A stretch of DNA of 64,000 nt from an uncultured Candidatus Peribacteria bacterium (GTDB lineage: Bacteria > Patescibacteriota > Gracilibacteria > BD1-5 > UBA6164), in assembly GCA_964404065.1 (NCBI GenBank), contig CAYOIP010000001.1, positions 21,721 to 85,720 of the forward strand, in the 5' to 3' direction. Both the position numbers and the translations under genes were made by a program. Below the pieces are notes generated by a model. It did not search any database. It had not been told where the DNA came from and was given only the letters and a program-made list of their open reading frames with translations. Within the stretch, counting starts at the first letter, position 1. Each line of letters opens with the position of its first letter. Shown one piece after another: positions 514 to 48,070 of this stretch.

Positions 514-3162
514 TTATTTTTTCAAAACTAATTTATCATTTTCAATACTCAAAAGTACATCATCTCATGATTTTAATTCATCTTTTAATATAAAGTTTGA
601 AAGTTCATTTAAAACTATGTTTGTAATAGCTCTTTTCATAGGACGTGCTCAAAATTCACTATCAAATCAAACTTTTATTAAGTATTCTTTTAATTCTTTT
701 GAAAAATCTATTTTTATATTTTTAGCTTCTAATATTTTACAAACGTCTTTTAGTAATATTTCAACTATTTCTAAAATCATTTCGTGATTTATAGGATTGA
801 AAACTATTATATCATCTATTCTATTTAAAAATTCTGGTCTGAAATAATTCTTTAACTCTCATAACATTTCTTTATTTATTTCATCTTCTGATTTTTTTTC
901 TTCTATGAGAGAAGCAATTTTTTTACTTCAAATATTAGATGTTAAAATAATTATAGCATTTTTAAAATTAACAGTTCTTCATTTACTATCAGTTAATCTA
1001 CCATCATCAAGAACTTGTAAAAGTACATTAAATACATCAGGGTGAGCTTTTTCAACTTCATCAAAGAGAATTACGCTATATGGTTTTCTTCTAACAGCCT
1101 CAGTTAATTGTCCTCATTCTTCATATCAAACATATCCAGGAGGTGCTCCTATAAGTCTTTGAACAGAGAATTTTTCCATATATTCGCTCATATCAATTCT
1201 GATAAAAGCATCTTTAGAATCAAATAAATTTAGAGCTAGTGCTTTTGCAGTTTCAGTTTTACCAACTCAAGTAGGACCAAGAAATAAAAAGCTTCAAAGA
1301 GGTTTGTGTTCATCATTTAGTCAAGCTTTTGCTCTTTTAATAGCATTTGCAACTGCAAAAATGGCTTTATCTTGTCATACAACCGATTTTTTCAAATACT
1401 CTTCTAAATGCAATATTTTATCTTTTTCGCTTTGAACAAGTTTTGAAACAGGAATAGATGTCCATTTTGAAATTATTTCTGCAATATCCTCATCAGTTAC
1501 TTTATCTCTTAAATAAGATTTTCCTGAGTTTTTTATTTCTTCAAGTTTATTATCAATTTCAGAAATTTCTTTTTCTAGAGCAGGGATTTCAGAATAACTT
1601 ATTTTAGCTACTTCTTGGTAATTTGCTTCTCTTTCAAAAGTTTTTGCTTTTATTTTTAATTCTTCAATTTTTTCTCTTAACTGCTTTGATGCAACAATTA
1701 AATCTTTTTCTTTTTTCCAAGATATTTCTAAAGATTTATATTCTTCTTTTTTGGAAGCTATTTCGTGAGATAGTTTTTCTAATCCCCCCTCTAACTCCCC
1801 CCTAGCAGGGGGAGGAGGATTTTGGATTTTCCCCTCCTGCAAGGGAGGGGTTAGGGGAGGGGTATTTTCTGACTTCTTCGCCTCCAACTCTATCTCCAAA
1901 TTCCTTATTTTTTTCTCTAAAATATCAAGTTCAACAGGTTTTGAAATAGTTTTTAATTTTACTGAAGATAATGCTTCGTCAATCAGATCAATGGCTTTAT
2001 CAGGAAGTTTTCTATCAGTAATATATTTTATACTTAATTCAACTGCTGAAATTATAGCATTATCAGTTATTTTTATTCAGTGATGAGTTTCGTATTTATC
2101 TTTTATTCATCTAAGTATAGCTAGCGCATCTTCTCTTGAAGGTTCATCAACTAATACTTGTGCAAATCTTCTTTCTAAAGCTGGATCTTTTTCAATATAT
2201 TTTCTATATTCATTTATAGTTGTAGCTCAAATCAAATGCAAAGCTCATCTAGCTAAACTTGGTTTCAAAAGATTTCAAGCATCGGCTTGTCATTCCTGAT
2301 TTCAAGCTCAAACTATAGTATGAATTTCATCAATAAAAAGTATTATATTTCAGTTAGATTTTTCAACTTCTTTGATAACTGCTTTTAGTCTTTCTTCAAA
2401 TTCTCATCTATACTTTGCTCATGCAAGCAAAGCTCACATATCAAGAGTTATAATTCTTTTTCAAAGTAAATTTTCTGGAACTTCACGCTCAACTATTTTT
2501 CTAGCAATTCACTCAATAATTGCTGTTTTTCAAACTCAAGGGTCTCAAACTAAAACTGGATTATTTTTTGTCCTACGAGATAGTATTTGAATAGTACGTC
2601 TAATTTCTTCTTCTCTTCAGATTACTGGATCTATTTTTCCATTTCTTGCTTGCTCCACCAAATCTATTCAATATTTTTTCAGAGCATTTAGTTTATTTTC
2701 TGCGTCATTTGAAGTTACTTTTTCTCAATTTCTAAACTTTTCAATAACTTTTAAAATATCATCATATTTTATATTTAGAGTAGAGAATATGTTTTTTATT
2801 TTTTCGCTTCAAGATTTTAAAATTGCTAAAATAAGATGTTCTTCTGTTATAAATTCGTCTTTGTTTTTTCAAGCAATATTTTCAGCTTCTCTTAAAATGT
2901 CATTTAGAGGGTAAGAAATCCTCAAATCATAATGTCATTCAATTTTTGGGAAATTATCAATTTCTTTTTTAATACTTGATTTTAAAATCATTAAATCGGC
3001 TCCTAAATCAAGAAGTATTTCTTTTACAATGCTATCACTAGATTCAAGCATAGAGTAAAGTAAATGAAAATCAGTGATTTCAGGATTTTTTAAATTATTT
3101 GCAAGATTTTGGGCTTCTGCAATCCTAGAACTTGCATTTATGGTAAATTTTTCGATGTTCAT
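514..3162 (-). CDS. clpB: ClpB disaggregase (AAA+ chaperone), 882 aa, with a repeat-derived insert in the middle domain
   Basis: N-terminus [18 protein letters not shown].... NBD1 Walker A VGDPGVGKTA at ~2521-2550 has three Gly encoded by TGA. NBD2 FLGPTGVGKTE. C-terminus [15 protein letters not shown] then TAA. Standard-code fragments 1375-1899 and 2935-3162 are in the same frame. Confidence 0.95.
1784..1862. repeat. GC-rich palindromic element, double-arm copy A, inside the clpB CDS in frame
   Basis: cccccctctaactcccccctagcagggggagg-aggattttggatttt-cccctcctgcaagggaggggttaggggagggg. Two inverted units, each with its own hairpin. Read in frame as [32 protein letters not shown] (visible in ORF-track entry 1375..1899). 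Confidence 0.9.
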
Positions 3163-3255
3163 ATATTTTTAATTAAAAATTAAATTAGCACATATGTATT
3201 ATATGTGCTAATTTTAAAAGTCAAAAGATTTTTTTGCAAATAAAAAACACCACTT

Positions 3256-4221
3256 CTAATGATGGTGTTCATCGTGTCAATGTTCGTCATGTCAATGATT
3301 ATTATATTGTTCATCATGTCAGTCATTTGCAATCTTCTTTTTTCACTCAATATAAGCAAAGTACCGAACTGAAGTTTTAAATATTTCAAAAACTCATCAT
3401 AAATATCATAAAACTAGAATTAAAGCTATAAATATAATACTTAAAAGTAAAACTGTAATTATCAAAATAGCTTTAGTTGTGATAAAAGTAATTGCAGAAG
3501 CTATTAAAAAAGGGAAGAATAAAAATACTAAAAAGTTAATTATGATTCTTATATTTACTAAAAACATAAAAAAATATATTTTTGTTGTTGTTCTCAAATT
3601 TAAGATAGAAATTTTTATTGACTCAGAAATAGACTCTAAAGCTTTTTTATTGTTTAAAACTATTTCAAATCTAGCGTAAGCAAATAAAATATTTACTATT
3701 GTAGAAATAACAAGTAAAAATAAAAATACGTAACTTAAATATAAAATATATTCAACTCAAACAAATCTTAAACAAAAAAGATAAATATTCAAAAGACTCA
3801 TAAATTTGAACTGAGCAAAAATATTTCAAAATTCAAATAATGGCAAAAATCTATAAAGTCAGTTTCAAATACTATCAGATACGCTTACATAAGTTTCTAG
3901 AGTTTCTTTTTTTGAAATATACCAAATCAAGCCTCATTCAAAAATAGGCATAACTATCATATATAATACAAGAAGAATACTTCAAGAAATTAGTATTTCT
4001 GAAAAATATCAAGAGTGAAAAACATTTAATATAACTTTTAATGCTTTATCTTCTTGATGAAATAATTCAACATAAGTATAAATTGTTTGATAAACAAGTA
4101 TTATCATCAAAAAAATTATTGAGATAAGCCCAGGTATAAAATAAAATTTTTTTATTTTATGATCTTCATGCATTATATCTAGTGCTTTTGTGATAATATT
4201 TTTTTTAAGATTGTCATTCAT
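3256..4221 (-). CDS. multi-pass membrane protein of unknown function with a His/Asp/Glu-rich C-terminal tail
   Basis: Fragments 4009-4221 and 3406-3597 share a frame and join when TGA=Gly. Several hydrophobic spans. Ends ...NDGHDEQYNNHGHDEHGHDEHHH then TAG at 3258-3256. Confidence 0.6.
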
Positions 4222-6337
4222 TGTTAAAAACTCTTTTAATAAATTTTATAAAATCATAAATTCATTTGTTTGTAAAAATTATTTTTTTATCACTATTAAC
4301 GTATGATTTATAAATTGCATCAATTATAGCAAAATCTCAAGGTGAATTTTCATTTAAAGAAAATCATTTTATATTTTTATCTATTAAAACTACGTTTTCT
4401 TTTGTATAAAGACTTTTAAAAATTTGTTTTTCATCAAGAATTTGGACAACTTTTTTTTCTAATTCAAATCTTTTTTCTTTTGATAATACATTTGATTTCA
4501 ATTCTTCAAGTAAAATATCTAAACTTAGATTTTTTATATTTGAAAATGAAAATCATCATTTTGATTGACTAGAGTGAAAATATGGGAAAATATTATAATT
4601 TTGATATCATAAATTTAATCAAACTAAAAGTAAATCATAATTTTCTACTCAATCTAATATTTCTTTGTTTAAATCATCAATTGTTACAGAATTTATATTA
4701 ATAATTATTCAGTAACTTTCTAGATTATTTTTAATAATATTTACAACTTGTGAAAGTTCTTTATTGTTATCAATGTAATAAAGCTTTAAAACAAATTTTT
4801 CTAAATTTTCATTATAAAAATATTTTTCATCTAAAGATAATATTTTTGTCTTTTGTTCTTCACTTATTTCCTTTGGTTTTTCTACAACTCAAAAGTAGTT
4901 TTTTTCTATATTTGCTAGTTTTTCTTTATCAGTAGAAAAAACTATGTTAAATTCTTCAACTAGCTGCTTTTTTCCTCAAATTACAAATTCTATTTTATAA
5001 TTATTTTCTCAAACTACTAGGTTTCTATAACTAAGTTTTAATCTATAATAAAACTTAGTTTCTCCGGATTTATAGCTTGCCAATTTGTATCAATTTATAT
5101 AAATTTCATCTGGATTTTTATCTTTTGTAATTCAAGTTATTAGTATATTATCTTCACTAAAGAAGTTGTATTTTTTTGTAAAAGGAGAAGATATAAAACT
5201 TAAATCAGAGTTTGTTTTTCAAGTATTTGTTTGTCAGCTTGCTGAATTTTGAGTTAATTTATTTAATAATTGGTCTTTTTTATAAAATCAATTCTCATTT
5301 ATTATACTTACTAAATTTGTATTTTTTATCTCATTATTTTGTTTTAATCATTCCTCTAAAAATGGATTAGTTACTTCTTTATATCAATTTCACAAAGTTT
5401 TTAAAATATTTCAAGTATCAACTTTTCATAAAATAAAATTTCTTAAATTAAAATCTTTAATTTTATCTTCATTTATAAACAAAGAAACATATTGATTTAA
5501 AAAATATGGTTTTTGTTCAAGTCTAGGAATGCTATCTCAAATAATTTTATTTTTATCAAAAAATATATTTACATCTTTAAGTCTCAAAAAATGAGCTTCA
5601 TCTTTAAATATTTTAAAAATATATTTTGATATTAAAATATTTGATTCTTTATAATTTTCATTTTTTGTTAAAATAAGTTTTTGAATTCACAAACTATCAT
5701 CATAACTTACAGTTTCTACTTTGTAAGGACCAGAATAAATTCAATCAATTGGATTAAATTTTCCATATAATTCTTTGTTTCAAATATTATCTAAGACTGT
5801 TTTTGGAACAATTGGTTGGAAAAGAGCTTGTAGGAAATTTACATCTTTTAATTTATTTGAGAAAGTTATTATTCATGATTTTTCTTCAACAATAGTATCC
5901 TTTAGTAAAGATCATAAAGAATTATTTATATCAGAATTTTTTATGATATTGTAAGTTGCAACTACATCTTGGGCAGTTATATTTTCTCAATTTGACCATT
6001 TAACATTATCTTTCAGATAACATTCTATATAATTTAGGTTTTTTACATCACAATTTGCTAAATCAGATACAATTTCTTTTTTTTCAAAATCATATTTTAA
6101 TAAGCTTCTGTAAAGCATATAAATAATATTTTTATTGTAATCATTTGAACTTAAAAGTGGGTTTAGATGTGGAAAATCTCAGATAATTCATTCTGACACA
6201 CTTCATCATTCGCTAGGAGATTCAAGCGAATTATCGTATAAATAAACGTAAATTATGTGTCATCAAATTATAAATGAAAAAAATATACTTATCAGAAATA
6301 AGTATTTTTTTAACCTATTTATATTATCGCTATTCAT
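4205..6337 (-). CDS. ABC-transporter substrate-binding protein, family 5 (peptide/oligopeptide-binding-like), N-terminal membrane anchor
   Basis: 710 aa translated codon by codon with no TAA/TAG. MNSDNINRLKKYLFLISIFFSFIIGG anchor; FPHLNPLL; KDNVKWSNGENITAQDVVATYN. The 3' end overlaps the next start by 17 nt. Confidence 0.7.
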
Positions 6338-6429
6338 AAAAGTTTAATTAGTGTTAATTCTTTAAAAAACTAAAATTACTCAAAAACGAAAAGTTCGAGG
6401 AAGAAAAATTTCAAATTTTTCAGTAATTT

Positions 6430-6648
6430 TTATTTTATGAAAAAAAATACTAGAGAGTTTATAGTAAATAAAGTTCAAAGAACAATGGTTGTAATATGTA
6501 AAACTTTTTCTCATCATCTTTTTGTAACTTCTCACATTCATCCTCACATACTTGTAAGATTTAAAGAAACATTTTTATTTTGAACTAGTATTACAAGTAT
6601 AAGTAATATAGAAATAATTATTTGCGATATTGTTAAAGCAGTAGTCAT
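6430..6648 (-). CDS. secG: preprotein translocase subunit SecG
   Basis: 72 aa: MTTALTISQIIISILLILVILVQNKN...MGGGMGEVTKRGGEKVLHITTIVLGTLF. This is the SecG pattern (LLQ-like, Gly-rich loop, RG.E..L...T). Confidence 0.6.
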
Positions 6649-6651
6649 TTT

Positions 6652-7047
6652 TTATTTTTTAGAAAATAATATCGAATACAAAATATTCAAAATTGTAAAA
6701 ATTGCAACAGCAATTATAAAATTTATGCTTCAATTGATTTCAAAAGTCATTCCAGGAAGTGCTAAAATGTTATTTATTGCTTTTGATAACAACCATAATA
6801 AAAGTGCATTAATAAGCAAACTTACGATTGGATAAATGAAAAATAATGGAATTCCTAAAAGTTTCAAAACTGGTTTCACAAATGTATTTAAAAGTCACAA
6901 AATAACTCATCAAAGTAGATACGTTTTCCAAGCGTCAATTCAAGCTGGCAAAACTACAACTGCATTGGGATGAGTTTCATTATTTAAAAGATATGCAATT
7001 ATAAAAAGAATAGAAGCATTTAATAAAATGGAAAAAAAGATTTTCAT
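6652..7047 (-). CDS. DUF360 / phage-holin-4-like small membrane protein
   Basis: 131 aa; LLGGVILGLLNTFVKPVLKLLGIPLFFIYPIVSLLINALLLWLLS resembles the DUF360 core. Confidence 0.5.
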
Positions 7048-7069
7048 AGTTTTAAAGTTAGAAAATATT

Positions 7070-8494
7070 TTACAATTTATACTCAATTTTTTCTCAAATT
7101 CAAATATTTCCAGAAATTACATTTGATGATTTTATATAATCAAGTTCATCTATTTCTGGAGCATGGCTTTCTGGTATAACGGAAAGTTTATTTTTTGAGA
7201 TTTCGTGAATATATCAAGTTTGAATTTTTCAAACTCTTTGCTCATATTTTTTATCATAAATTTCTTCTAGGATTTCTCTCATTTCATAAACTCTTTGCTC
7301 AATAATTTTGTCATCAACTTTATTACCAAGTTTTGAAGAAGTTGCTAAAGGTTCATCATGATAACCAAAAAGAGAAACACTATCAAATTCATATTTTCTT
7401 GCAAAATTTTTTAGCATTTCAAAATCTTTTTCATCTTCCCCGGGGAACCCAACTATAAAGTTTGTATGAAGAAAAACATTTTTAAAATTTGCTTTTATGA
7501 AATCTAAAACTTTATAAATATGACTTTCATCGTAAAATCTTCACATAAGTTTTAAAACTTTTGGAGAAATATGTTGAAATGGAAGATCAAAATATGGAAT
7601 CATTTTTTTCAGTTTTGCAAGTCTTTCTAGATGAGAAAAAGTCAAGATATCGGGATACATATAGTAAATTCTATATTTAAAATCTCATGGAACTTTATCA
7701 ATTTCTTCAAGTAAATCTACAAGTTTAGATTCTCAGTAGATATCTGTTCAATATCTTGTTAAATCTTGAGCAATAATTTGAATTTCTTTAATTCCAGAAG
7801 AAATCATCGTTTTCACTTCAGTGAGTATATCTTCGATACTTCTTGATTTTTGTCTTCATCTGATGTTTGGAATTATACAAAAAGTACAATTATTATCACA
7901 TCATTCAGATATTTTTAGATATTCATATCCAAAATCAGCATTTAGGTAAGCTCTTACATCATCAGATTGCCAAATAAATGCTTTTGATGAAATATTGTCA
8001 CCTCAGATATTTTTTAAATAGTTTTTTAATTTTTCTGTTTTTAAGCTTATAATATTTTGATTTAGCTTTCTAAATCCCCCAACCTCCGCTACGCTTTGGT
8101 TTTCCCCCTTTACAAAAGGGGGAAGCGAAGTATGAGCAGGGGGATTTTTCATCCAATCAAGATTTTTACTTTCATTATGAGGAATAACAGCATAAAGATT
8201 TTTAAGGCTTGATAAAAATTCGTCATCTTTTACTTCTGTATAACATCACATAACAATAATTTTCTTTCATTTATCGTCATATTCTTTTATAAGATTTTCA
8301 GCTTCTTTTCTAGAACTAGATAAAAATCAGCAAGTATTTATTATCAAATACTCAACTTCTTTTTCGTCTGGATCAGTAAAAAACTCTATATCAACTTCTG
8401 AAGATAAATTAAAAATATTTCAAACCATAAATTCTAAATCAACTAAATTTTTAGAACATCCAAGGTTTATAGTGGAAAAATAAAATGTTTTCAT
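7070..8494 (-). CDS. rimO: ribosomal protein S12 methylthiotransferase RimO (radical SAM) with a repeat-derived insert
   Basis: MKTFYFSTINLGCSKNLVDLEFM; NTCGF; radical-SAM ISEGCDNNCTFCIIP; C-terminal TRAM-like end. Fragment 7229-7417 is in the same frame. 474 aa. Confidence 0.85.
8072..8147. repeat. GC-rich nested palindrome (divergent variant, copy B) inside the rimO CDS in frame
   Basis: aaatccccc...cgctt..ttttcccccttt-ac-aaaagggggaa-gcg...gggggattt. Outer 9-bp and inner 10-bp inverted repeats. Translated as NPPAHTSLPPFVKGENQSVAEVGGF. Confidence 0.8.
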
Positions 8495-8504
8495 GAAGCA
8501 AAAA

Positions 8505-8531
8505 ATAATAAGCTAAATTTTAGCTTATTAT
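8505..8531. repeat. AT-rich junction palindrome ATAATAAGCTAAA(T)TTTAGCTTATTAT, copy 1
   Basis: Lies between the ubiA-like stop (8528-8530) and the rimO ATG (8494). On the minus strand it is followed by a T-run and then the ATG. Confidence 0.7.
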
Positions 8532-9325
8532 ATGGAAAAAGTAGTTTTGGCAAATTTAATATAAAATATAAAAACAAGTATCATATACAAAAAATAATAA
8601 AATTGATATTTTCAAAAAGGAATATTATTTTTATATTTTGATTTAATAATAAATATTATAAAAAATAATGGGAAAAATAATATCAATATTCATTTAAAAT
8701 AAAAAATTGATGCTATAAAAGAAATTAAGAAAATACTTCAAAAAAATAAATTTGGTAAATATTTTATGCTAAATAAATTTTTATATAAAATTAAATTTAA
8801 ACATGCAAAAGAACTTCATAAAGTAAATAAGATAAAATTGTTTTCTAAAAAAGGATTTATTCATAAATAAATCGTTATTAATAACCATTTTATAAAATAA
8901 ATAATAAAAATATTTATTTCTCTGAGAAAATATTTATTTCTCAATTTAATTTTAGGATGACTATAAATAAAATTTAAAAAATAAAGCAAGAAAATAAAAA
9001 TCAAACTGATTTTTGAAATAAAAAAAGAAATAATAACTCAAATAAGAGGAATAATAACTCAAAGTATAAAAAATAAATTTTTATTTTTTATATCTAAATA
9101 TAAATTATGTTTTTTATTTTTTAAATCCTCATTTTTATCATAAAAATCATTAAGAAAATATATAAAACTATAACTTAAAGAATATCAAAAAATTCATAAT
9201 AAAAAGTGAAATAAATCTATTTCAATATTATAATTAATTTTAAAAATTAAATATAATAAAAAAAATAAATAAAAATTTCTTAAATTATGACTGATATATT
9301 TTATTTCTTTATAATCTTTAAACAT
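8528..9325 (-). CDS. UbiA-family prenyltransferase (integral membrane)
   Basis: 265 aa, highly hydrophobic; Asp-rich motif LNDFYDKNEDLKN (NDxxDxxxD). Confidence 0.6.
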
Positions 9326-9333
9326 GATAAAAA

Positions 9334-9347
9334 ATAATAAGCTAAAA
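9334..9347. repeat. half-copy of the AT-rich junction palindrome
   Basis: ataataagctaaaa lies immediately between the Fic stop (9349-9351) and the ubiA-like ATG (9325). Confidence 0.5.
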
Positions 9348-9348
9348 T

Positions 9349-10353
9349 CTAAACATACCTATTCATATTTAATAAATAATTTTCTACAAATAAATCTCTC
9401 ATCAAACTCACATCATTTAATTCATAAATTGCTAAAATTGCATTTATGTAATCTCTGTCTTTTATTTGCAAAAAACTAAACGGCACAAATCAATTTTTAA
9501 TAAGTGGAATATTTGCACTAATTCTTGAAGTTCTTTTATTTATATCCTTAAAAATTTGAAAATATGGAATAAAAACAAGTATAAAAAGTGATTGCTCAAA
9601 AGGATTTTTTATTTCATTAAGTTTTTGTAAAAATATACCAAATTGATCTTCAAGCTGAAATCTATTTTCTAACGGAGTATAACTTGACCCTCAAATACTT
9701 ACTGAAGAACTTCTAATTTTTCATAAATAATCTTCAAGCAACAATCATTTTCAAAGAAATTTATGAATATTTTGAAATTCAGTTTTACTAAAATTTATAT
9801 TATTTCTATTATCAATTATGTACTTTATTGCATTTTTGTGATTAAGTATCATTTGAGTTTCAACTTGGCTTTTTCACTCTGCAACAGAATTATATTTTAT
9901 AAGTATTTCTGTATCTAGATAACTATATGTATTTCATTCAAGTTTTGAAGATGAAAAACTCAGATCAATAAGCAAATTTTCTATTGCTCTTAAATTTTCT
10001 TTGTAATCATAAGTTGAAAGTATATTTTGATCTAAATATTTTTCTTTAATTAACTCATATTTTTCTCATAAGAAATTCGTTTCATTTGGTTTATAATTCA
10101 GTAAAAAATCAAAATTATATGATTTTTTTTCTCTTTCAAAAAATGGTTTTTGAAAATAATTTGAAATATTTTGTTTAATTTTATACTTTCATTTTGAAAT
10201 TTCTATAATTTTATCATCTTTTATTAAATCTTTAAAGTCTCTATAAATAGTTGTTCTTTCAAGATTTAACTGATTTATAACATCAGAAACTTTTATAATT
10301 TCTTTTTGAGTAAGTAGATTTAATATAAATTCTTGTCTTTGTTTTTTATTCAT
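9349..10353 (-). CDS. wHTH + Fic-domain protein with a degenerate Fic motif
   Basis: 334 aa. N-terminus MNKKQRQEFILNLLTQKEIIKVSDVINQLNLERTTIYRDFKDL (DeoR-like HTH). The Fic core position reads QIFKDINKRTSR instead of HPFxDGNGRxxR. Confidence 0.6.
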
Positions 10354-10373
10354 AATTTGAATTATAAAAATAA

Positions 10374-10435
10374 TGTTGCAAATATTATATTTTTTGTTGC
10401 AAAAATTGCAACATTATTTAGTAAGAATTGCAACA
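10374..10435. promoter_or_regulatory. cluster of TTGCAAC/GTTGCAA half-sites, including the perfect palindrome TGTTGCAAAAATTGCAACA (10395-10413)
   Basis: Four half-sites lie directly upstream of the HTH-Fic gene start (10353). Candidate operator. Confidence 0.4.
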
Positions 10436-10469
10436 TAGTTTTCAATAAATGGATTTTTGCAACTTAAAT

Positions 10470-10503
10470 CTAAAAATAAAAGGCTCGGAAAACCGAGCCT
10501 TTT
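10470..10503 (-). terminator. GC-rich intrinsic terminator of the standard-code cassette
   Basis: Minus strand: TGA-caaaaGGCTCGGttttCCGAGCCttttatttttag. This is the only GC-rich terminator stem seen in the window. Confidence 0.75.
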
Positions 10504-10504
10504 G

Positions 10505-11083
10505 TCATGTCATCATTGCAATTTGCATCACAATTGATAACACTACCCATTCAAATGTTACAGCAATTTCCCAAACATCTTTTTTTGTTATTTTTCTTCC
10601 TTTTGTTTCTATAAACAACTGGATTAACATGGATGAAAGTGCAATTCCATTTGCAATCCAAATAGTTACATCAACAGGAGGAGTTTTTAGATAATGCATT
10701 ACTCCTGGGAATACAACTACAATTGCAGCAACCATTAACGAAATTTGGGAAATGTTTTTATTTTTTTTATTCATATACCCAAAAATTGCTAATAGTAGAA
10801 CGCTTGAAAATACTAGCCCTTGAGTAGGATTTAATCCTATGTTTTTCATCCCACCTATGATGATACCTAATACAACACTTATATCACCTATCAGCATAAA
10901 TGAATAAAACTTCCAAGGACCATTATTTCTTTTCATAACTGCTATTTGTGCTATCATCAAGATTGTGAAACCTAACCAAGATAATAAAACGATATCATGG
11001 TTAGAGTGCTTGGTAGCATATATTGCTGGCAGAAATGATGCCATAGCCAACATATATGCAATATTTTGCAGTGACATGGTCAT
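10505..11083 (-). CDS. 7-TM membrane protein (possibly PQ-loop/SemiSWEET-like duplication) written in the standard genetic code
   Basis: The only long intact ORF in the supplied track (192 aa). 12 Gly all GGN, 5 Trp TGG, no internal TGA; ends in TGA at 10507-10505. AGGAG Shine-Dalgarno at ~11086-11090. SFLPAIYATK...LSW resembles a PQ-loop. Under code 25 it would read on to TAA at 10420-10418. Confidence 0.75.
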   Translation of the reverse strand: MTMSLQNIAYMLAMASFLPAIYATKHSNHDIVLLSWLGFTILMIAQIAVMKRNNGPWKFYSFMLIGDISVVLGIIIGGMKNIGLNPTQGLVFSSVLLLAIFGYMNKKNKNISQISLMVAAIVVVFPGVMHYLKTPPVDVTIWIANGIALSSMLIQLFIETKGRKITKKDVWEIAVTFEWVVLSIVMQIAMMT

Positions 11084-11149
11084 TTCTCCTAAAAATGAGT
11101 GAATTTTCCTATACTGAATTGAGAATTAATCTACCAGTATAAGATATGA

Positions 11150-11177
11150 AATATAAACACAAAACTATTTTTGTCAA
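11150..11177 (-). promoter_or_regulatory. candidate sigma70-type promoter of the standard-code cassette
   Basis: Minus strand TTGACA-16 nt-TATATT, immediately after the MFS stop codon. Confidence 0.35.
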
Positions 11178-11178
11178 A

Positions 11179-12357
11179 CTAATCTTTCCTCAAAAACCAG
11201 AAATAAACAGAGCTTAAACTAAAAAATAAAATTATTCATAGAACCAAAAATCCTAAACTATAAGATTTATTCATTATAAAAGCAATAGGAATCATTAAAA
11301 GTATTTGAATAATAGATGATAAAAATCATTTTATTGAAAGTATAGTTGATTTATATTTTTTTCATGGAATTAAGTTTATTATATGATCAGTATAAATATC
11401 ATACCTTCACCACATATATCAAATTACAACTGAAAATAATAGTCAAAGTAAATATGGATTTGTTATAAAATAGGCTCAAATATAATAAAAACTAAAAACA
11501 AAAATTTCAATTAACATCAATTTATGAAAATCAATTTTATCTTCTATCTTATGAGCAAATTGTCATACAATAAACCGAACAAATCTTGAAAGTCACATTA
11601 CAAATCATAAAAAAATTACTGGATAACCTAAACTTTCTAAATATGGAGTTCTAAAAGATCAATCAACTTGTAAAAATGCTATAATAACTGATGAAAATAT
11701 TATTACCTGAAATAATCATGTTCAAGAAGATAATTTTAAAGTTTCTTTTAAATTTTTTATATTTATTTTTTCATTTTCATGATGTTCTGATTTAACCGGG
11801 AAAAGTAAAAAAGCTACTAAAAGTCATATTATATCTATTCATAAAGCTATTATAAAAGGAAAAACTAAACTAATTTTTGTAAAAAAAGGTAGAGTAATTA
11901 TAAAAAATATACTTAAAAACGAAACCCATCATTTCATAGAAGATGAAATTTTTTTAAATTTACTTTCTTTTCAAAGAGATGTTAATGTATCATGTAAAAA
12001 GATTGAAGTATTTCATGTAGTAAAAGCATCTGCTCACAGTGCCATAAATATAGCTCAAGCAAAAAAATACCAAAAATTATCTCAAATAACAAACCATAAG
12101 CTAGATAATATTAAAAAGATTTTACTTATAATTATAGTAATTTTATTTCAAAATTTATCTCAAATATATCATGCAGGAAGCTGAAAAACTAAAGATGCAA
12201 TATATCAAGCAGTCATATAAAATCATATTTCCTGAGCTTGAGAGTTTTGCAAAGATAAATAATAAATACTCAAAATTGGAATAAAGTTTCTTCTTGAAGT
12301 GAAAAGTATTATAAAATGTTTCCAAATATTGGATTCAAGTCAAGTGAGTTTGAACAT
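11179..12357 (-). CDS. MFS-type transporter
   Basis: 392 aa, about 12 hydrophobic spans; motif-A-like GYIGDKFGNK. By hand count about 27 Gly are TGA versus 2 GGN. Confidence 0.65.
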
Positions 12358-12366
12358 TGCAAAAAA

Positions 12367-12392
12367 ATAATAAGCTAAATTTAGCTTATTAT
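12367..12392. repeat. AT-rich junction palindrome, perfect 26-nt copy
   Basis: ataataagctaaatttagcttattat lies between the stop at 12399-12401 and the MFS ATG at 12357. Confidence 0.75.
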
Positions 12393-12398
12393 ATAAAA

Positions 12399-12935
12399 TT
12401 ACCATTTAGGAACAAATTTTTTTTGGCTATAAGGTTTTATTCATCAATATCTTTCAAATATTTCTATTAATTTTCATAAATCAGTATATTTATCATCTAA
12501 AAAATATAATATTGGATCTCAAGAACTCATTAAAAAAGCAGATTTTCAAGAACCATATATATAAGCAGTATTTTTTGATGGTCAAGATGATTTACGTTCT
12601 TCAAGAAAATTAAATCTTCAATTAATTTGTTGTTTTGCTTCAATAATTGCTTTTTCAACTTCTCAACTATATTTTTCTCAAGGAAATCAATGAGAACTTA
12701 ATTTTCTAACTAAATTCTCAGATAACAGATTTTGAAGTTCAAATAAACGAATAGAATCACTAATTTCTAATATTCCATTAACAAGTAATACTCTACGAAT
12801 TACTTCTTGTACAGGTTGAGGTAATGAAAAAAAATATTTTTTTAATGTATCAAAATTTAGATAATAACCTAGTTGTTCTTTTTCTTCCAATGAAAAATCT
12901 TGATCAAATAAAGGAATAGTTAGATTAGAGTTCAT
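12399..12935 (-). CDS. hypothetical protein (178 aa)
   Basis: Fragment 12687-12935 extends through TGA codons to TAA at 12401-12399. No motif recognised. Confidence 0.5.
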
Positions 12936-12996
12936 AAATAAAATTAAAAAAATAAGAATTATTTATAATCCTTATTTATAAAAAGTCAATATTTTT

Positions 12997-13461
12997 TTAC
13001 AACTTAAATATTTTTATAAGTTTGTCTGTAAAACTTAATTCTCAGTTTTCATCTTCTACTATGAAATTTGGTAAAATTCATTTTAAATTTAAAGCAATAT
13101 TATTATCAATAGTTAAATCTAAAAAGTTAATTCATTTTTTTACCAAAGCAAGTCTTAAGATAACGGCATTTTCTCAATCGTAAATCAAAGTATAAGATGA
13201 AATTTTTGAAAAATCATAAAATGAATTATTTACTTTTATTCATAAATTTGTGATATAAACTTGAGTAGTTTCTTCTGAATTATTTTCTAAAAAAAAGCTA
13301 ACTCAAGTAATCAAAATAATTAAAAAACTCATCACATATTGGCGAGTCAAAAATCACCAAACAACAAGTCAAATTATCACAGATAAAGCTATTATATACC
13401 ACAAATTTCATCTATTTTTGTCATTTGAAAAACTCCAATTATAAATTATTTCATTGTCCAT
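12997..13461 (-). CDS. hypothetical membrane protein (154 aa)
   Basis: MDNEIIYNWSFSNDKNRGNLWYIIALSVIIGLVVWGFL...; two hydrophobic spans. The ATG lies 2 nt after the upstream stop. Confidence 0.5.
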
Positions 13462-13463
13462 TT

Positions 13464-13817: not shown

Positions 13818-13841
13818 AATTTCAAGTTATCATTTAAATTT

Positions 13842-13879
13842 CCCCTCTACCTCAAGGGAGAGGGGTTAGGGGTGAGGGC
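13842..13879. repeat. GC-rich palindromic element, single-unit copy C
   Basis: cccctctacctcaagggagaggggttaggggtgagggc. Its terminal ...GGGCTATAT supplies the TAG stop of the upstream gene. Flanked by TTAAATT on both sides. Confidence 0.85.
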
Positions 13880-14586: not shown

Positions 14587-14615
14587 AAGTTTGTTTTGTT
14601 GGTTATTGTATAATT

Positions 14616-15099: not shown

Positions 15100-15139
15100 A
15101 ATTAATATTTATTACTTAATTTTTTGTATTATATTCATT

Positions 15140-35085: not shown

Positions 35086-35694
35086 ATGCCAGAAAGTTTA
35101 AAAAAATTGATTAATCTTATAGGTTTTTTACCTTGAGTTGGAGAAAAGTCAGCTACTAAACTTGCATTTTTTTTACTGAATTCAAATAAAAATTATCTAG
35201 AAAATCTTGCAAATTTACTAAATAATTTAAAATCAAGTATAGGAAAGTGTGAAAATTGTGGAAGTTTGGTTGATATGTGAAAAGAACTTTGTGAAATCTG
35301 CACTGATGAAAGTAGAGATAAAAATATAATTTGTGTAGTTGAAGAATATCTTGATAAAATGACAATTGAAAATTCTTGAATTTTTAATTGAACTTATCAT
35401 ATACTTGGATGAGCTATTTCACCGATAAATGGAGTTTTTATTTGAGATTTAAATTTTGAAAAATTATTTAAAAAAATTGCAGAACACGAGTGAGGTTTAG
35501 AGCTAATTATGGCTACAAACCCAAATATTGAATGAGAAGCAACGGTTCAATATATTTTATGAGAATTAGAAAAAAGATGACTTAAAAAATTTGTAAAAAT
35601 TACAAGACTTTCTAGATGACTTTCTAGTTGATATATAGAATATGCTGATAATATTACACTTATAAATTCTATAAAAGAAAGAAAAGAAATTTAA
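35086..35694 (+). CDS. recR: recombination protein RecR
   Basis: LPGVGEKSATKLAFFLL (HhH), zinc finger CENCGSLVDMGKELCEIC, Toprim ICVVEEYLDKMTIE. 202 aa. Confidence 0.9.
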
Positions 35695-35728
35695 CCCCCA
35701 CCTAACCTCCCCCTTATCAAGGGGAGGG
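35695..35728. repeat. GC-rich palindromic element, single-unit copy F, starting 1 nt after the recR stop
   Basis: cccccacctaacctcccccttatcaaggggaggg; hairpin CCTCCCC-ttatcaa-GGGGAGG. Confidence 0.85.
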
Positions 35729-38796: not shown

Positions 38797-38801
38797 AGAT
38801 T

Positions 38802-39420: not shown

Positions 39421-41232
39421 TTATTTTTCTAATACTGCTTTTATTCTTCTAACTCATCTAGAACTGGCTTCTTCTTTTAAAATCTTAAATTTTCACATAA
39501 TTCCAGTATTTTCTACATGTGGTCATCCACAAAGTTCTCTTGAAAATATTTCTCAAGAAGGAGATTTAAATGTATAAACTTTTACGATATCAGGATATTT
39601 TTCCCAAAAACTTCATTCTACTCAGTTTTCTTTTGCAACATTTTTATCCATTTCTTCTAAAACAACTTCAGCTTGTGCTGAAATAGCTTGGTTTACATAA
39701 TCTTCTACTTCTTTCAATTGTTCAGGTGTAACTTTATCTTCATTTGTGAAATCAAATCTAAGTCTTTCAGCAGTTATATTTGATCCAGCTTGATGAACAT
39801 GATTTCATAGGACTTTTCTAAGTCATGCCAACATTAAGTGAGTAGCTGAGTGAAGAGCTGTTGTAGTTTCTGAGTGATCAGCTAATCCTCAAGCAAATTT
39901 TTGAGCAGCTCAAGCGCGTGATAATTCTTGATGTTTTTTAAAAGCTTCATTGAATCAATCAACATCAACTTTTAGTCATTTTTCTAAAGCTAACTCCTGA
40001 GTCATCTCAATTGGGAAACCAAAAGTTTGAAATAAATCAAAAGCTTCTTTTCAAGAAATTTCTGATTTATTCCCCTCTCCTTGCAGGAGAGGGGCTAGGG
40101 GTGAGGTTTTTTTATCAAACTCTCTCAATCATTTTTCTAATGTAGTTAAAAATTGTTTTTCTTCTCTATCAATCTCTTCTAAAATTATAGACTTTCTATC
40201 AAGTACATTTGTATAAATTGGTGAAAATTTTTCTATTACTTTGCTTGCAACTGGAGATAAAAATTGTCACTGAAATCCTAGTTTATATCATTGTCTGATA
40301 GCACGTCTTAAAAGTCTTCTTAAAATATATCATTGATCTACATTTGATGGAGTTACAGAGTCAGAAATCATTATAACAGAAGTTCTTAAGTGGTCTGCTA
40401 TTATTCTTACAGAATTTTTTGTATTTTCGTTATATTCAATATTTAAAGTTTTACATATAACTTCAATAATATCTGAAAAAATATCAGTTTCATAAACACT
40501 TGGAGCTCAAGTTAAAGTTCTTGTAATTCTTTCAAGTCACATTCATGTATCTACGTTTTGCATTGCTGCTTTATTAAAATTTTCATTTTCATCTTTAACA
40601 TATTCCATAAATACATTATTCCAGATTTCCATCCAGTTTTTATCATCATTTCAAACTGTGCTTTCTTTTGGTGGAAGTTCTTCTTTTCATACCCGATAAA
40701 ATATTTCAGTATCTGGTCAGCAAGGTCCTGTTGCTCCAGCTGGTCCCCACCAATTATCTTTTTTTCAAAGATAACTTATATTTGTAATTCCTAAACTTCT
40801 CCAAACATCAGCAGAAAAATCATCTTTTGGAGCATTCAAGTCTCACTCAAAAACTGTTACAGCTATTTTTTTAGGGTCAATTGCTAGCCAATCTTTTGAA
40901 GTTAAAAATTCATAAGACCATTTTATAGAATCTTCCTTGAAATAATCTCAAAGCGACCAATTTCCAAGCATTTCAAAAAATGTTAAGTGAGTATTATCTC
41001 AAACATCTTCTATATCTCAAGTTCTTATACATTTTTGATAATCAGCTAACCTTTTTCCAAGAGGGTGTTTTTCTCATAACAAATATGGAACCAAAGGTTG
41101 CATTCCGGCAGTATTAAATAAAACAGTTGGATCATTTTCAGGAACTACTGAAGCAGAAGGGATGATAGAATGATTTTTTGATAAGAAAAAATCAATATAT
41201 TTTTGTCTAATTTCATGACTTGTAATTTGCAT
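39421..41232 (-). CDS. alaS: alanine--tRNA ligase, short form (603 aa) with a repeat-derived insert
   Basis: The N-terminal two thirds was translated line by line. [27 protein letters not shown] (Trp=TGG and Gly=TGA in one motif), GPCGPDTEIFY, editing-domain HSATHLM and CGGPHV. Confidence 0.95.
40072..40106. repeat. GC-rich palindromic element, single-unit copy G, inside the alaS CDS in frame
   Basis: cccctctccttgcaggagaggggctaggggtgagg (24 of 35 nt are G/C by count). Translated as [12 protein letters not shown]. Confidence 0.9.
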
Positions 41233-43612: not shown

Positions 43613-43614
43613 TT

Positions 43615-43929: not shown

Positions 43930-43938
43930 AAAATATTT

Positions 43939-45999
43939 ATGTCAGAACAAGAAAAAAAAGAGCAAACTTTAACTCAAGAAACTCAAATTAGGCAAGAATA
44001 TACTGAAGATGATTTAAGAGTTCTTCTTGTTGATTTATGAATGCTAGAAGAAAATTTATTTTCAAATAAAGATTGAATAGTTGATGGAAATAGTGGTGAT
44101 AGTGAAATAGATAAAAAATATAAAGAATGATTAAAGAAAGCAAAAGATATTAAAACAAAAATAGAATTAGTTCAAAGACTTTATTGAGAATTTAGTAGAG
44201 ATAGTTATATAAAAACAACTATTTCATCTCATTTAGATTCAAAAAAAGATTATTTAGATGATGAAGATAGGGATAATATATATAAAATTCAAGAAGAAAC
44301 ACAAAAGATATTAAATGATTATCCAGAATATAAAGAAGTTATAGTTAATCATATAGAATCTAATTTTGATAAATTAAATTATATTGTTTCTAATTACCAA
44401 AAAAATTGAATTGATAAAAAAATCATATCTAATTATTTAAAGATAGATTATAAATTAACTTTAAATGAATGATTTAATAGATTGAGAATAATATTAGAAC
44501 ACATAAATAAGTCAGAAAAAATCATTGATAAAAAAAACATTGTAGATAATTTTCTAAATATAACAAAAAGTGTTTCAGTTGATTTTAGTTGAATGTCTGA
44601 AATAGAAAAAAATAATGACCCATATTGACTTAAAAAATTAGATAAAATATATAATTTTGATTTTACAAATAAGTCACAAGAATTAGATATATATAATTTA
44701 TTAAAAATTTGAATTAAAGATTTAGAATATATAAACAAACTTTACAAAGAAAATAATAAACAAGAATTAATAAGTTTTATAGATAATTTAGAAAATAAAA
44801 ATGATTTGTTAAAAATTGAAAGTATCAAAAAAATTTATTTAGAAGAAAGAAAAAATGAATATGATATAAAAGATTTAGATTTTTGAAGATTAGATGATGT
44901 TTTATTAAAAATAGAAAAAATAAAAGATTTAAAAACAAAAGAAAAAATTATTAATTTACTTAAGGAGTTCAAAAATGGGGGAATTAATGTAGGAAATAAA
45001 GAACAAAAAGAAAAAGAATTAAATGAAATATTTTCTTCTGCATTAAAAGACATTTCTAAAAATATAAATGATGATGATAAAATAAATGACAATCATTATG
45101 AATTAAGTATTCTACACTCTATTGCAATAACTTTTTCAACAGATTTTACTCTTGAGCAAATAGAAAAATTACAAGAAAATATTTGAAAAAATGTAAATAT
45201 AAGATTATTAAAACTAGAAGAAAAATTAAGTAATCCAAATGATTTATATAGGTATAAAAAATGATTGGCATCTTTAAGAGAAAATGACAATTCACCAGAA
45301 AACACTCAGTTAAAATTAGATTATTATAATAGTTTTTCTTTATGAAAAAATACTTATTCTCAAGGTATAAGATGAAAAGCTGAAGAAGAAAAAAAACAAC
45401 CAAAAATTACTGAATCAAAAAAAGCACAAATTCAATATCATTACCAAAAACTTTGATTAAAAGTTCAAGTTTGAAATAATTGAGAAATATTATGAAAATA
45501 TTGAGAGAAAAGTTTTTCTCAAAAACTTCAAGGTTGAAAAATAGAAGTTTGAGCCGATGAGAAAATGATTTACACAACATCACTTTGATACAAATTTGAA
45601 TTTGAGAATAGTGAATTTTGAGCTATGAAAGTAGTTGAAATAACTCAAAGATTTGATTATTTAAACAAAATCTGACTTGGATATTTTGGTGAAAATTTCA
45701 AGAAAATGATGGATTGTATTCCAAGTTTTCTTCCTAATCAAGCATTAAGATTAAATATAGACGAAAAGACTTGAGATTTTTTAGATCAAGTTGAATTAGG
45801 TAAAATTTTAGAAATATTTATAAATATTTGATTTCTTGAAAATATAAATTTTAGTCAAAATATATCAAATATTCAGGAGGTTACTGATGGACAGATGATG
45901 TATAGAGTTTGAAATCTAGAAAATTGAAGTGCATTTATTGATTGAAAATTTGATATAAAATTATTTTGAGAATTATTACAAGAAAAAAATAAAGTCTAA
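43939..45999 (+). CDS. hypothetical K/E/N-rich protein (686 aa)
   Basis: Every codon was checked and is open under code 25. Starts 9 nt after the upstream stop. Confidence 0.6.
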
Positions 46000-46018
46000 A
46001 ATTTAGACTTTATTTGTT
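45988..46018. terminator. hairpin at convergent gene ends
   Basis: aaagtctaaa-a-tttagacttt. It overlaps both stop codons (45997-45999 on + and 45996-45998 on -). Confidence 0.5.
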
Positions 46019-46940
46019 TAAGTAATTTAAATAATTTATATAAAAATTTATTATTTATCCAAATATAACTATCACTTACTTTTTTTATATCTGGAGTAAA
46101 TTTTAGTTTAAAATCAGTTACTCAAGCAAGTGGTGAATTTTTATCTTCAGGGCTTGCTATTCATAAAAAATCATAATACTTAGATCAAATTTCTTTGGCT
46201 TTCTTTATAGCGTACCATTGCATACTATACGGAGCCATTAAGTTTCTAAATTCTTTTAGAGAAGTAGAAGCTCAATAATAATAAATAGAAATTTCTTTAT
46301 TAAAAATAAATATTCAAGCAGAAAGTATTTTGTCTCAAATTTTTGTAAAAATAAGAGAACTTTCAGGGATAATTTCTAAAAAATTTTTATAATATTCTAA
46401 ACTATTTCAAGAAAATCAGTCTCTTGAAGTTGTTTCTAAAATTAGCGAGTAAAATATTTTTATATTTTCTAGAGTTTTTTCTACTTCAAAAACTTCAACT
46501 CATTTTTTAGTTGCAAGTCAGATATTATATCTTCACTTTGGTTTCATTTCTGATAAAATTTCTTCTTCAGATTTTTTTAAATCAATAAGAGCTGTATAGG
46601 GAGTAATGAATTTTTTATAGTGTCAAGGTTTTAGCCCCCCCTCTAACTCCCCCCTAGCAGGGGGAGAAATAGGACTTTCCTCCCCTGCCAGGGGGAGGTT
46701 AGGTGGGGGGATTTTAAAACTCTCAACTTGCACAAATAAACAACTTTGCAATTTACAAAGTTTAATTAATTCCTCAAAATTAACTTTTTCTAAATCTTCT
46801 ATTCATAAAGCAAAAAGTCAGTATTTTCAAAATCAAATACTTCTTTTTTCTACTAATATTTCATCAACCTCAAAAACATCACTTGCTTGATGTGATTTTA
46901 ATAGTAATTTTTTCCAATTATTTGATTGCCAAATAGACAT
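45996..46940 (-). CDS. FemAB-family peptidoglycan bridge-forming aminoacyl transferase (FemX/MurM-like) with a repeat-derived insert
   Basis: 314 aa. MSIWQSNNWKKLL, MKPKGRYNIGLATKKGVEV, GVTDFKLKFTP. Insert [30 protein letters not shown]. Confidence 0.7.
46635..46710. repeat. GC-rich palindromic element, double-arm copy H, inside the FemAB-like CDS in frame
   Basis: ccccccctctaactcccccctagcagggggag-aaataggactttcc-tcccctgccagggggaggttaggtgggggg. The left arm shares 31 identical nt with copy A. Confidence 0.9.
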
Positions 46941-46944
46941 AGTT

Positions 46945-47955
46945 TTAGTTTTTATGTAAATGTTTAATTGCATTCTCTGTGATTTTTCTTCCACGAGATG
47001 ATTTTTCTATAAATCAGATTTGAAGTAAATATGGTTCAACCACATCTTCAAGAGTTGCTTCTTCTTCTCAAATACTTGATGCGAGTGTTCCAAGTCCTAC
47101 AGGACCTCACGAAAATTTTAAATTTATTGTATCAAGATATTTTTTATCTAAATAATCAAGTCCAATCTCATCAATTCATAAATCTATAAAAATTTCTTTC
47201 CAAGTTTTTTGCTCATTTATATTGTGCCCTATAATTTTATAATCTCTAATAATTTTTAAAAGTCTATTTGAAATACGAGGAGTTCATCTACTTCTAGATG
47301 AAATTGCTTCAATTAAATCTTTTTGCATTTCTAGTTCTAGTATTGATGCATTTCTTACAAGAATTTTTGATAAATCACTTCCTGAATAAAAATCAAGTTT
47401 TAGAACATTTCCAAACCTATCTCTTAGAGGGCTAGATAATGCACTGAGTTTTGTAGTAGCTCATATTAAAGTAAAAGATTGAACTGGCATTCTAACACTT
47501 TGCGCTCAAGTTCATTTTCAAACAACAATATCTATAACAAAATCTTCCATTGCAGTATAAAGTATTTCTTCAATTTGTGGTTTTAAACGGTGAATTTCAT
47601 CTATAAAAAGTATGTCTCAGGCTTCAATATTTGATAATATACTAACAAGATCTGCTTGTTTTTCTATAGCAGGACCAGATGTGATCTTTAAATTGCTTCA
47701 CATCTCGCTTGCTATGATGTTTGATAAAGTAGTTTTTCATAGTCCCGGAGGTCAGTAAAAAAGAATATGCTCTAAAGCTGCATTTCTGAGTTTTGCTGAA
47801 GCGATTGAAACTCAAAGATGTTTTTTTATTTGTTCTTGTCCAACATATTCTCAAAGTGTTTTTGGTCTAAGAGAATTTTCATTTAGATCAATATCTTTTA
47901 CAGTAGTTTCAATAACTCTATCGGGTTTTTTAGTTTTTGATGAACTTAATGCCAT
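46945..47955 (-). CDS. ruvB: Holliday junction helicase RuvB
   Basis: [49 protein letters not shown]. 336 aa. Confidence 0.95.
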
Positions 47956-47979
47956 ATAAATATTTTAAAGGTTAATTTT

Positions 47980-48070
47980 CCCTCACCCCAACCCTCTCCT
48001 TTGAAGGAGAGGGAGTAGAAGGATTTTTTATCCCCCTCTACCCTCAAGGGAGAGGGGCTAGGGGTGAGGG
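47980..48070. repeat. GC-rich palindromic element, double-arm copy I
   Basis: ccctcaccccaaccctctcctttgaaggagaggg-agtagaaggattttttat-ccccctctaccctcaagggagaggggctaggggtgaggg. The right arm lies inside the 3' end of the methyltransferase CDS. Confidence 0.9.

Follow-up and report, generated by a model that had tools for sequence, protein, structure and literature searches.

How did nine short, GC-rich palindromes come to lie inside and beside the genes of a very AT-rich bacterium? The question is raised by a 64,000-nt stretch of contig CAYOIP010000001.1, from an uncultured Candidatus Peribacteria bacterium of the Gracilibacteria; this whole stretch is referred to here as the window. An initial annotation had recognized in it a dispersed family of palindromic elements, copies A to I, that enters genes in frame as Rickettsia palindromic elements (RPEs) do. 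We find that the units from which eight of these copies are built are a variant, with tracts of four guanines (G4), of the known pan-bacterial BoxC/PIT/TM repeat, and are neither lineage-specific nor a new family. Taken as a whole, the explanation that we favour, and regard as probable on balance, is that the window holds BoxC/PIT/TM copies that reside in frame, that were made by a replacement type of copying and that have an autonomous relative in a cassette encoding a DUF559 nuclease.

A sequence check found all nine blocks where the initial annotation had placed them, and the contrast in base composition is sharp (GC content 0.57–0.69 in the blocks, against 24.4%, or 0.244, for the window). 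When 30-nt segments with a GC content of at least 0.6 were collected, 12 islands emerged from the 64 kb; ten of these are the nine blocks, copy I being split in two, and a tRNA and one coding stretch account for the others. The core pattern CCCCTARCCCCTCYC, with up to three mismatches allowed, gave 11 matches where shuffles predict 0.11, and a loose regular expression and an nhmmer profile each returned exactly 13 units in eight loci and nothing else in the window. Copies A, D, E, H and I consist of two inverted units separated by a short spacer and C, F and G are single units, as first described; the 31-nt identical arm of A and H is also there, and near-identical units recur between C and I_R and between A_R and D_R. 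The three single units do all have their C-rich side first in the transcript, but three out of three is not significant. Copy B (8072–8147) stands apart. Its palindrome and its in-frame insertion are real, but its membership of the family is not borne out, because it fails to match the family profile even at E ≤ 10; it is a separate, divergent nested palindrome, more AT-rich than the other blocks, and may be an old, decayed dimer.

Read in the G-rich orientation, a unit of about 35 nt runs through five parts: a C-rich stem (8–10 nt), a loop (3–8 nt across the 13 units), a complementary G-rich stem, a 3-nt loop and a G-rich tail that mirrors the stem. The second loop is TTA, CTA, GTA or TTG in 12 units and has 4 nt in the remaining one, D_L. 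All 13 units show Watson–Crick pairing at 7–10 of 8–10 positions and mirror symmetry at 6–10 of 8–10, and they fall into four sequence subtypes. In the dimers the hairpins point inwards and the tails outwards, with different subtypes paired in A, D, E and H. The copies fold stably as RNA or DNA (−15 to −63 kcal/mol), although some fold z-scores are modest because shuffles of such GC-rich sequence fold well too, and the G-rich strand holds four G4 tracts. Intrinsic terminators were considered as an identity for the units and set aside: two of the 13 satisfy loose criteria, one of them on the wrong strand, and the window has separate, AT-rich terminator-like hairpins.

This architecture is that of a repeat described in E. 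coli as the 'triplex motif' (TM) TMECO and earlier named BoxC and PIT (Holder 2015, PMC4666352). The assignment follows from two observations: all 13 units fit the three-block geometry, their first loop (3–8 nt) being slightly wider than the published 3–6 nt, and near-identical units occur in at least 120 species genomes. The latter were retrieved by matching the exact hairpin, linker and tail pattern to GTDB species genomes, for which about two chance matches are expected at uniform base composition. At least 120 loci in at least 120 species genomes matched, across many phyla, with hosts that include Nostoc, Okeania, Sphingomonas, Mesorhizobium, Devosia, Paludibacter, Prevotella, Chitinophagaceae, Anaerolineae, Planctomycetota, Sporomusa, Saganbacteria and Amesbacteria (GC content, 34–71%). 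These matches have the stems, a YTAG linker, the tail and an ATT/GTY left flank in common with the window units, as the sequences from Paludibacter (CCCCTCTCCTCAAGGAGAGGGGTTAGGGGTGAG) and copy G (CCCCTCTCCTTGCAGGAGAGGGGCTAGGGGTGAGG) illustrate. In E. coli itself the motif is present in 5001 of 5426 complete genomes, lying in K-12 between lldD and trmL. The TMECO pattern, CCCTCNCCC N3-6 GGGNGAGGG N3 GGGNGAGGG, fits one of the 13 units (I_L) at up to three mismatches, because the tracts here are G4/C4 and not G3/C3; a G3 form is found in the Gracilibacteria relative L297. No Rfam family matched the window at the gathering score.

The repeat is said to have been described earlier by Bachellier and by Hoyne and Maher in 2000. 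A census counted 3610 copies across 262 genomes of Proteobacteria and found the repeat to be numerous in cyanobacteria as well, and the 23 copies in K-12 are 'always' intergenic and include five inverted pairs of two subtypes (Holder 2015, PMC4666352). Closely spaced inverted pairs of different subtypes are also what A, D, E and H represent. An intergenic location describes the E. coli copies but does not define the family, and it is not shared here: A, G and H lie inside coding sequence and I spans a stop codon. The same study found PIT/TM repeats to be without promoter or terminator activity in E. coli and detected no link to transposons, tying the motifs instead to local genomic instability, deletions and rearrangements; the same sequence has also been characterized as HPG1, a G-quadruplex–hairpin–duplex switch with a proposed regulatory role (Kaplan 2016, PMC5100583). 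The novelty of the element implied by the initial annotation therefore falls away, since the family was already known from E. coli, cyanobacteria and more than 260 genomes (PMC4666352, PMC5100583).

What the copies do to their host genes depends on how these are read. In ClpB, UGA codons stand at the invariant glycines of the two Walker A motifs (VXDPXVXKT and GPTXVGKT), and a 79-nt tRNA with the UGA-decoding anticodon UCA lies at 28868–28946 on the minus strand; the window therefore uses code 25 (UGA as glycine), which is confirmed and underlies the reading frames given here. Coverage by open reading frames (ORFs) rises from 16% to more than 100% of the window once only TAA and TAG count as stops. 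ARAGORN labels the tRNA 'SeC(tca)', for selenocysteine, but tRNA-Gly(UCA) is more likely, because UGA sits on invariant glycines. The closest database homologues carry the names Candidatus Gracilibacteria or Altimarinota. Database copies of the ClpB, alanyl-tRNA synthetase (AlaRS) and RimO proteins of this window (P0001, P0121 and P0241) are 95–97% identical to the translations made here with code 25, the differences that can be seen being W in the database copies for G (in AlaRS, EKWLREF against EKGLREF); in one public source, it appears, code 4 was used for this genome.

Comparison with orthologues, as the initial annotation had proposed, indicates that every copy inside a gene is derived, because orthologues lacking the block were found for all five. 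Copy A (1784–1862, two inverted units with tails outward) is an 81-nt block encoding 27 residues within ClpB (514–3162, minus strand). ClpB orthologues of 860 residues, 81–89% identical, are without it, and at the nucleotide level the 81 nt face 15 nt in the relative L124; aligned with solved ClpB structures, the site falls at the turn between the first two long helices of the M-domain, at motif 1, which we take to be the exposed tip of that domain. Copy H (46635–46710), a dimer whose 78-nt block encodes 26 residues, lies within a FemAB-family gene (45996–46973, minus strand) whose syntenic orthologue in L127 has 294 residues in place of 325 and no copy. The 91-nt dimer I (47980–48070) extends across the stop codon of an O-methyltransferase gene (48038–48616, minus strand): the L127 orthologue ends in GIVMIIK, whereas the window protein runs through the element, with the junction peptide ...IVKPSPLAPLPGG, to an added C-terminal tail, PSPLAPLPGG. 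Copy G (40072–40106, minus strand), a single unit that encodes 12 residues, left no net change in length. The AlaRS that contains it (39421–41232, minus strand) and its orthologues all have 603–606 residues, and 17 element-encoded residues take the place of a conserved ancestral segment of about 18, LVNGFQIAFERTGQKIDT (about 37 nt for about 40 nt). In the RimO/MiaB-type radical-SAM methylthiotransferase (7070–8494, minus strand), the roughly 20 residues that copy B adds in frame in a linker are absent from nearly all orthologues; to judge from the alignment copy B is an older in-frame insertion, because one relative of 81% identity (P0242) has its residues in diverged form. A methylthiotransferase in L128 was tried as the empty site for copy B and dropped when it proved to be a paralogue.

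The same comparisons show that the events are not the clean insertions that had been assumed, because between 15 and about 45 nt of ancestral sequence were replaced. The possible target duplication noted beside copy C, TTAAATT, does exist as a repeat, but it is not flush with the unit, reaches P ≈ 0.04 before correction for the number of copies (nine) and is not matched at any other copy; no consistent flanking duplication was found at the window copies. The relatives L124, L126 and L127 contain no TM unit in 42 kb (77–89% protein identity), against nine copies in the 64-kb window, and the expansion of the family is thus recent and specific to this Gracilibacteria lineage. The hint of recent spread or conversion that the initial annotation had drawn from the shared arm of A and H is strengthened both by the near-identical arms and by these unit-free relatives. 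What stands of the likeness to RPEs is thus a dispersed, recent, in-frame palindromic family; what does not is membership of the RPEs, clean insertion and a new family. The remark of the initial annotation that it knew of no equivalent reported for code-25 bacteria was not contradicted by our searches of the open-access literature. In L128, an independent Logan assembly and the closest element-bearing relative, ClpB carries the dimer of copy A too, shortened by an in-frame deletion of 3 nt, and a separate TM-like unit (L128:4239–4273), also in frame, sits close to the 3′ end of the gene for a MiaB-type paralogue and encodes PPLNTPLIGGTLGG.

Copies A, B, G and H lie in long ORFs with the frame intact, as claimed at the outset. 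Each dimer offers one open frame per strand, and this is the frame that the in-gene dimers A and H use; their lengths (81 and 78 nt) are multiples of three, whereas D, E and I measure 71, 80 and 91 nt. A rough estimate from the frame counts puts the probability that four random insertions are all frame-compatible below 0.001. The copies that survive inside genes are those that keep the reading frame. They are probably transcribed and translated, as loops rich in proline, serine, glycine and leucine at places that would be permissive, namely linkers between domains, a C terminus and, in ClpB, the tip of the M-domain. Contact with stop codons, also part of the initial description, is borne out for C, D and F at 0–1 nt and for I by overlap. 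Copy C (13842–13879, minus strand, C-rich side first) has its last base within the TAG stop of an ORF at 13879–14586 (minus strand), and the intergenic 71-nt dimer D (14616–14686) ends in the same way within the TAG stop of a PrgI-family ORF (14686–15099, minus strand). Copy F (35695–35728, plus strand), a single unit, follows directly after the TAA stop of RecR (35086–35694, plus strand), and the 80-nt dimer E (24585–24664) occupies the spacer between two ribonucleotide reductase ORFs (21957–24569 and 24687–25730, both on the plus strand).

Element-type peptides recur at the same protein positions in Gracilibacteria that are not sister lineages, and at all three sites TM units were confirmed in the DNA. 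The ClpB site is occupied by TM units in L129 and L298, the AlaRS site in L130 by a unit that matches copy G in subtype and orientation, and the RimO site in the distant L297 by the G3 form (CCTCACCCTAACCCTCTCC...GGAGAGGGG). The ancestral AlaRS segment was overwritten, so insert-free sisters cannot be revertants; in the occupied lineages the element must go back to independent gains or to recombination. The 929-residue ClpB of L298, from a related Gracilibacteria genome, carries two separate element-like insertions, at 3063–3161 and 4039–4190.

A candidate for the enzyme came from other phyla. In a Chitinophagaceae locus (L031) a TM unit lies in frame within leucyl-tRNA synthetase (LeuRS) and is followed by an embedded DUF559 domain (PF04480; Pfam E = 1e-34) and then by a second, inverted unit; another (L049) has the same arrangement of unit and embedded domain in chorismate synthase (AroC; E = 1e-27). 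A profile search detected DUF559 ORFs in seven of the 120 genome loci selected for TM units, all seven no more than 81 nt from a unit and bracketed by inverted units. The association also holds in reverse. Among 46 metagenomic DUF559 loci chosen by peptide patterns only, independently of TM, a unit lies within 150 nt upstream in 29, within 150 nt downstream in 21 and on both sides in 19. The patterns were derived from a Bacteroidota pair, an alignment of eight DUF559 sequences being too divergent, and cover one subfamily. The orientation in this set is constant, tail–hairpin, ORF, hairpin–tail, with the same polarity as the window dimers; 11 further matches elsewhere in the 46 loci correspond to an enrichment of about 40-fold per kb next to DUF559.

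In 18 of the 46 loci the cassette sits in frame within a housekeeping gene: nine occupy a single site in chorismate synthase and eight lie in LeuRS at two or more sites, and in a further LeuRS cassette (L270), cut by the start of the locus, the downstream half of LeuRS alone is visible. Peptides encoded by the TM units, such as LTPNPSPKERG and SPLLGRGVGGEV, join the cassettes to the host protein. One LeuRS site displays a full range of alleles: 33 residues separate the anchors when it is empty (L276 and L293), 42 with a solo unit (L270), 82 with two inverted units around a remnant without an ORF (L268) and 178–191 with the full cassette (L031, L252 and L255). These in-frame TM–DUF559–TM cassettes of about 150 residues, free of stops, are of a Bacteroidota type (L251–L262, L268–L270, L276, L293, L031 and L049). 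Pfam searches found DUF559 and MTES_1575 only, and no intein or Hint domain, between the host-gene halves; introns were not specifically searched. DUF559 belongs to a Vsr-like PD-(D/E)xK group that includes a group I intron homing endonuclease (PMC3424549). In the open-access literature we found no paper linking DUF559 by title or abstract with BoxC, triplex, miniature inverted-repeat transposable elements (MITEs) or homing, and no published description of such in-frame cassettes. The strict TM pattern is also present in at least 120 viral or prophage loci of IMG/VR (L131–L250), with up to five copies per contig (L186), but a DUF559 gene lies near a unit in one of the 120 (L198), and phages are therefore not obviously the vehicle of the cassette. 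In E. coli K-12 the end of the DUF559 gene ycjD falls within a TM-type hairpin (L125:16041–16840); a partial duplicate of the 3′ end of the gene lies on its 3′ side, and a canonical TMECO about 170 nt downstream.

Taken together, these observations suggest how the window copies may have arisen. Copying would most likely use another copy as its template, through break repair or gene conversion, and not proceed by cut-and-paste transposition, because host sequence was replaced, duplications are lacking and near-identical arms occur in different copies. The autonomous relative would be the small cassette seen in other phyla, in which two inverted TM units enclose a gene for a DUF559 (Vsr-like PD-(D/E)xK) nuclease; it would act as an intein-less homing element at fixed sites in LeuRS and chorismate synthase and would decay to dimers without an ORF and then to solo units. 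The dimers of the window would represent the ORF-less state, either mobilized in trans or remaining where an ORF has been lost, and the mobilizing enzyme in this genome would, by analogy, be a DUF559 protein. This last step is the weakest, because no DUF559 gene was found in the available Gracilibacteria DNA. A broader version of the proposal is conceivable, though we consider it less likely than not: BoxC/PIT/TM repeats at large might be the ends and footprints of bacteria-wide, intein-less, in-frame DUF559 homing cassettes, whose units would be constrained to read, in two of the three frames of each strand, as flexible proline- and glycine-rich linkers and so be allowed to reside in essential genes. 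The burst in Gracilibacteria would then be an ORF-less, MITE-like phase, for which the compactness of the genome would leave coding sequence as the main landing space.

Several observations weigh against the proposal. Neither the window nor the eight related Gracilibacteria loci searched (112 kb) yielded a DUF559 ORF, 94–99% of the strict TM units in the genome and viral loci have no DUF559 nearby, and three cassettes from Alphaproteobacteria show the reverse polarity of the units around the gene. The reverse test covers a single, Bacteroidota-type subfamily of DUF559, the translation of the inserts is argued from frame statistics, and recurrence at the same sites may mean that permissive sites are scarce and not that they are targeted. 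The TM–DUF559 association is solid, but it can be read in either direction, with the nuclease mobilizing the repeats or the nuclease gene homing into existing repeat pairs. For the TM motifs of E. coli, Holder et al. found no link to mobile elements and put their variability down to structure-induced instability (PMC4666352).

For the window, spread that needs no dedicated enzyme is a serious rival, even if we consider it rather unlikely. Hairpin, triplex or G-quadruplex DNA would stall replication, and the resulting breaks would be followed by template switching or ectopic gene conversion; the link with DUF559 would be secondary, the gene having inserted into, or been retained beside, TM pairs that were already there. 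The association of TM loci with deletions and rearrangements but not with transposons (PMC4666352), the replacements without target-site duplication and the distance of most units from any DUF559 gene all agree with this. It leaves unexplained, however, why the unit is nearly identical across phyla of 24–71% GC, why it brackets DUF559 regularly and in fixed orientation, and why whole cassettes occupy identical LeuRS and AroC sites in many contigs. A role as cis-acting signals under selection, whether terminators, stabilizers of mRNA 3′ ends or hairpin/G-quadruplex switches, would account for C, D, F and I at 0–1 nt from stop codons and for the very stable folds, and a regulatory G-quadruplex–hairpin switch has been proposed (Kaplan et al., PMC5100583); we nevertheless regard it as improbable, because PIT has neither promoter nor terminator activity in E. 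coli (PMC4666352). Five of the copies, moreover, lie inside coding sequence, and close relatives do without elements at the same gene boundaries.

That the blocks within genes are not translated but skipped by ribosomes, or removed by a splicing step, is less credible still. There is a precedent in the GC-rich, mobile 'byp' inserts of AT-rich Magnusiomyces mitochondrial genes, which are bypassed, and every site here has a strong hairpin. Yet each in-gene copy is free of stops in the frame of its host, and the in-gene dimers, unlike the intergenic ones, have lengths divisible by three; elements that are skipped need not preserve the frame, which makes bypassing very unlikely, and the larger DUF559 cassettes contain no intein or Hint domain that would point to splicing. 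The least plausible readings of all are the two that the initial annotation had named as refuting it, assembly or chimera artefacts and ancestral protein segments retained in all relatives. Chimeric reads could produce so extreme a local contrast in GC content, but the same ClpB dimer with its in-frame deletion in the independent assembly L128 excludes an assembly artefact, and TM units occupy the same protein sites in other assemblies; ancestry is ruled out by the orthologues of 77–89% identity that lack the segments.

Two features of the surroundings may be recorded here. The cumulative GC skew reaches its minimum at 15587–16062 of the window, and gene orientation switches there, from minus throughout 1–15586 to plus from 16063; this interval may be a replication origin. 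The PrgI-family ORF that adjoins copy D, within 13879–15099 of the window, and an ORF in L127 resembling a type IV secretion system pilin point to genes for type IV secretion or a pilus.

BoxC/PIT/TM repeats are among the most widespread short repeats of bacteria and have been studied as formers of triplexes and G-quadruplexes, and their function and spread have not been established since the 1990s. Five aspects seem to be new here: copies that are in frame and apparently translated in essential genes; a code-25, very AT-rich host; the recent burst; the recurrent use of the same protein sites; and the regular association of the repeat family with DUF559 cassettes in other phyla. The in-frame copies, the same-site occurrences and the cassettes together supply a concrete enzyme and substrates that can be tested by experiment. 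There is also a lesson for annotation, in that the inserts lengthen proteins, create odd low-complexity segments and shift stop codons.

Set beside known systems, the window copies are closest to the BoxC/PIT/TM repeats of E. coli. Both have the succession of C-rich stem, loop, G-rich stem, 3-nt TTA or CTA loop and mirror G-rich tail, with nearly the same stems; both form inverted pairs, differ sharply in copy number between close relatives and have no known transposase or target-site duplication. They differ in the G4/C4 tracts seen here, as opposed to G3/C3, in the host (a Gracilibacterium with 24% GC and code 25), and in that five of the nine window copies lie in coding sequence and are apparently translated, whereas those of E. 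coli are reported to be always intergenic. Like RPEs, the elements are dispersed palindromic repeats that reside in frame in protein genes, are absent from orthologues and contribute peptide segments at permissive surface positions, and no mobilizing enzyme is known for either. RPEs, however, are about 100–150 bp long, confined to Rickettsia and not GC-rich islands; units of 35 nt, dimers of 70–90 nt, a host among the Gracilibacteria and a family spread across many phyla set the present elements apart by length and by host, and the two are not known to be related in sequence. The REP/RAYT systems (REPtrons), in which repetitive extragenic palindromic (REP) sequences accompany a REP-associated tyrosine transposase, offer a parallel in organization: a short hairpin repeat, single or in inverted pairs, that brackets one nuclease-type gene. 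The gene bracketed here, however, encodes DUF559 (PD-(D/E)xK, Vsr-like) and not a Y1 HUH transposase, and REPs are extragenic. The units were rejected as REP-type elements because they lack a GTAG or CGTC head; their linker, which reads YTAG or CTAR, lies on the opposite side of the hairpin. They were also rejected as MITEs: although they have inverted arms, no duplication flanks them consistently, and the host sequence is replaced, not duplicated.

Homing endonuclease genes and inteins resemble the TM–DUF559–TM cassettes in that the latter sit in frame at fixed sites in LeuRS and AroC, with empty, full and degenerate alleles, and in that the Vsr-like clade of DUF559 includes a group I intron homing endonuclease (PMC3424549). 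The cassettes have no intron and no intein splicing domain, so that they would stay in the host protein, and DUF559 is a putative nuclease. Empty and occupied alleles of an in-frame cassette are found for the Bacteroidota LeuRS and AroC sites; among Gracilibacteria no cassette was seen, and the recurrence at the same sites concerns ORF-less elements only. The GC clusters of yeast mitochondria, although unrelated in sequence and host and without a mirror-repeat tail, are likewise small, mobile palindromes of high GC content, in a genome that is very AT-rich and has reassigned UGA, and some of them lie in frame in a protein gene (VAR1).

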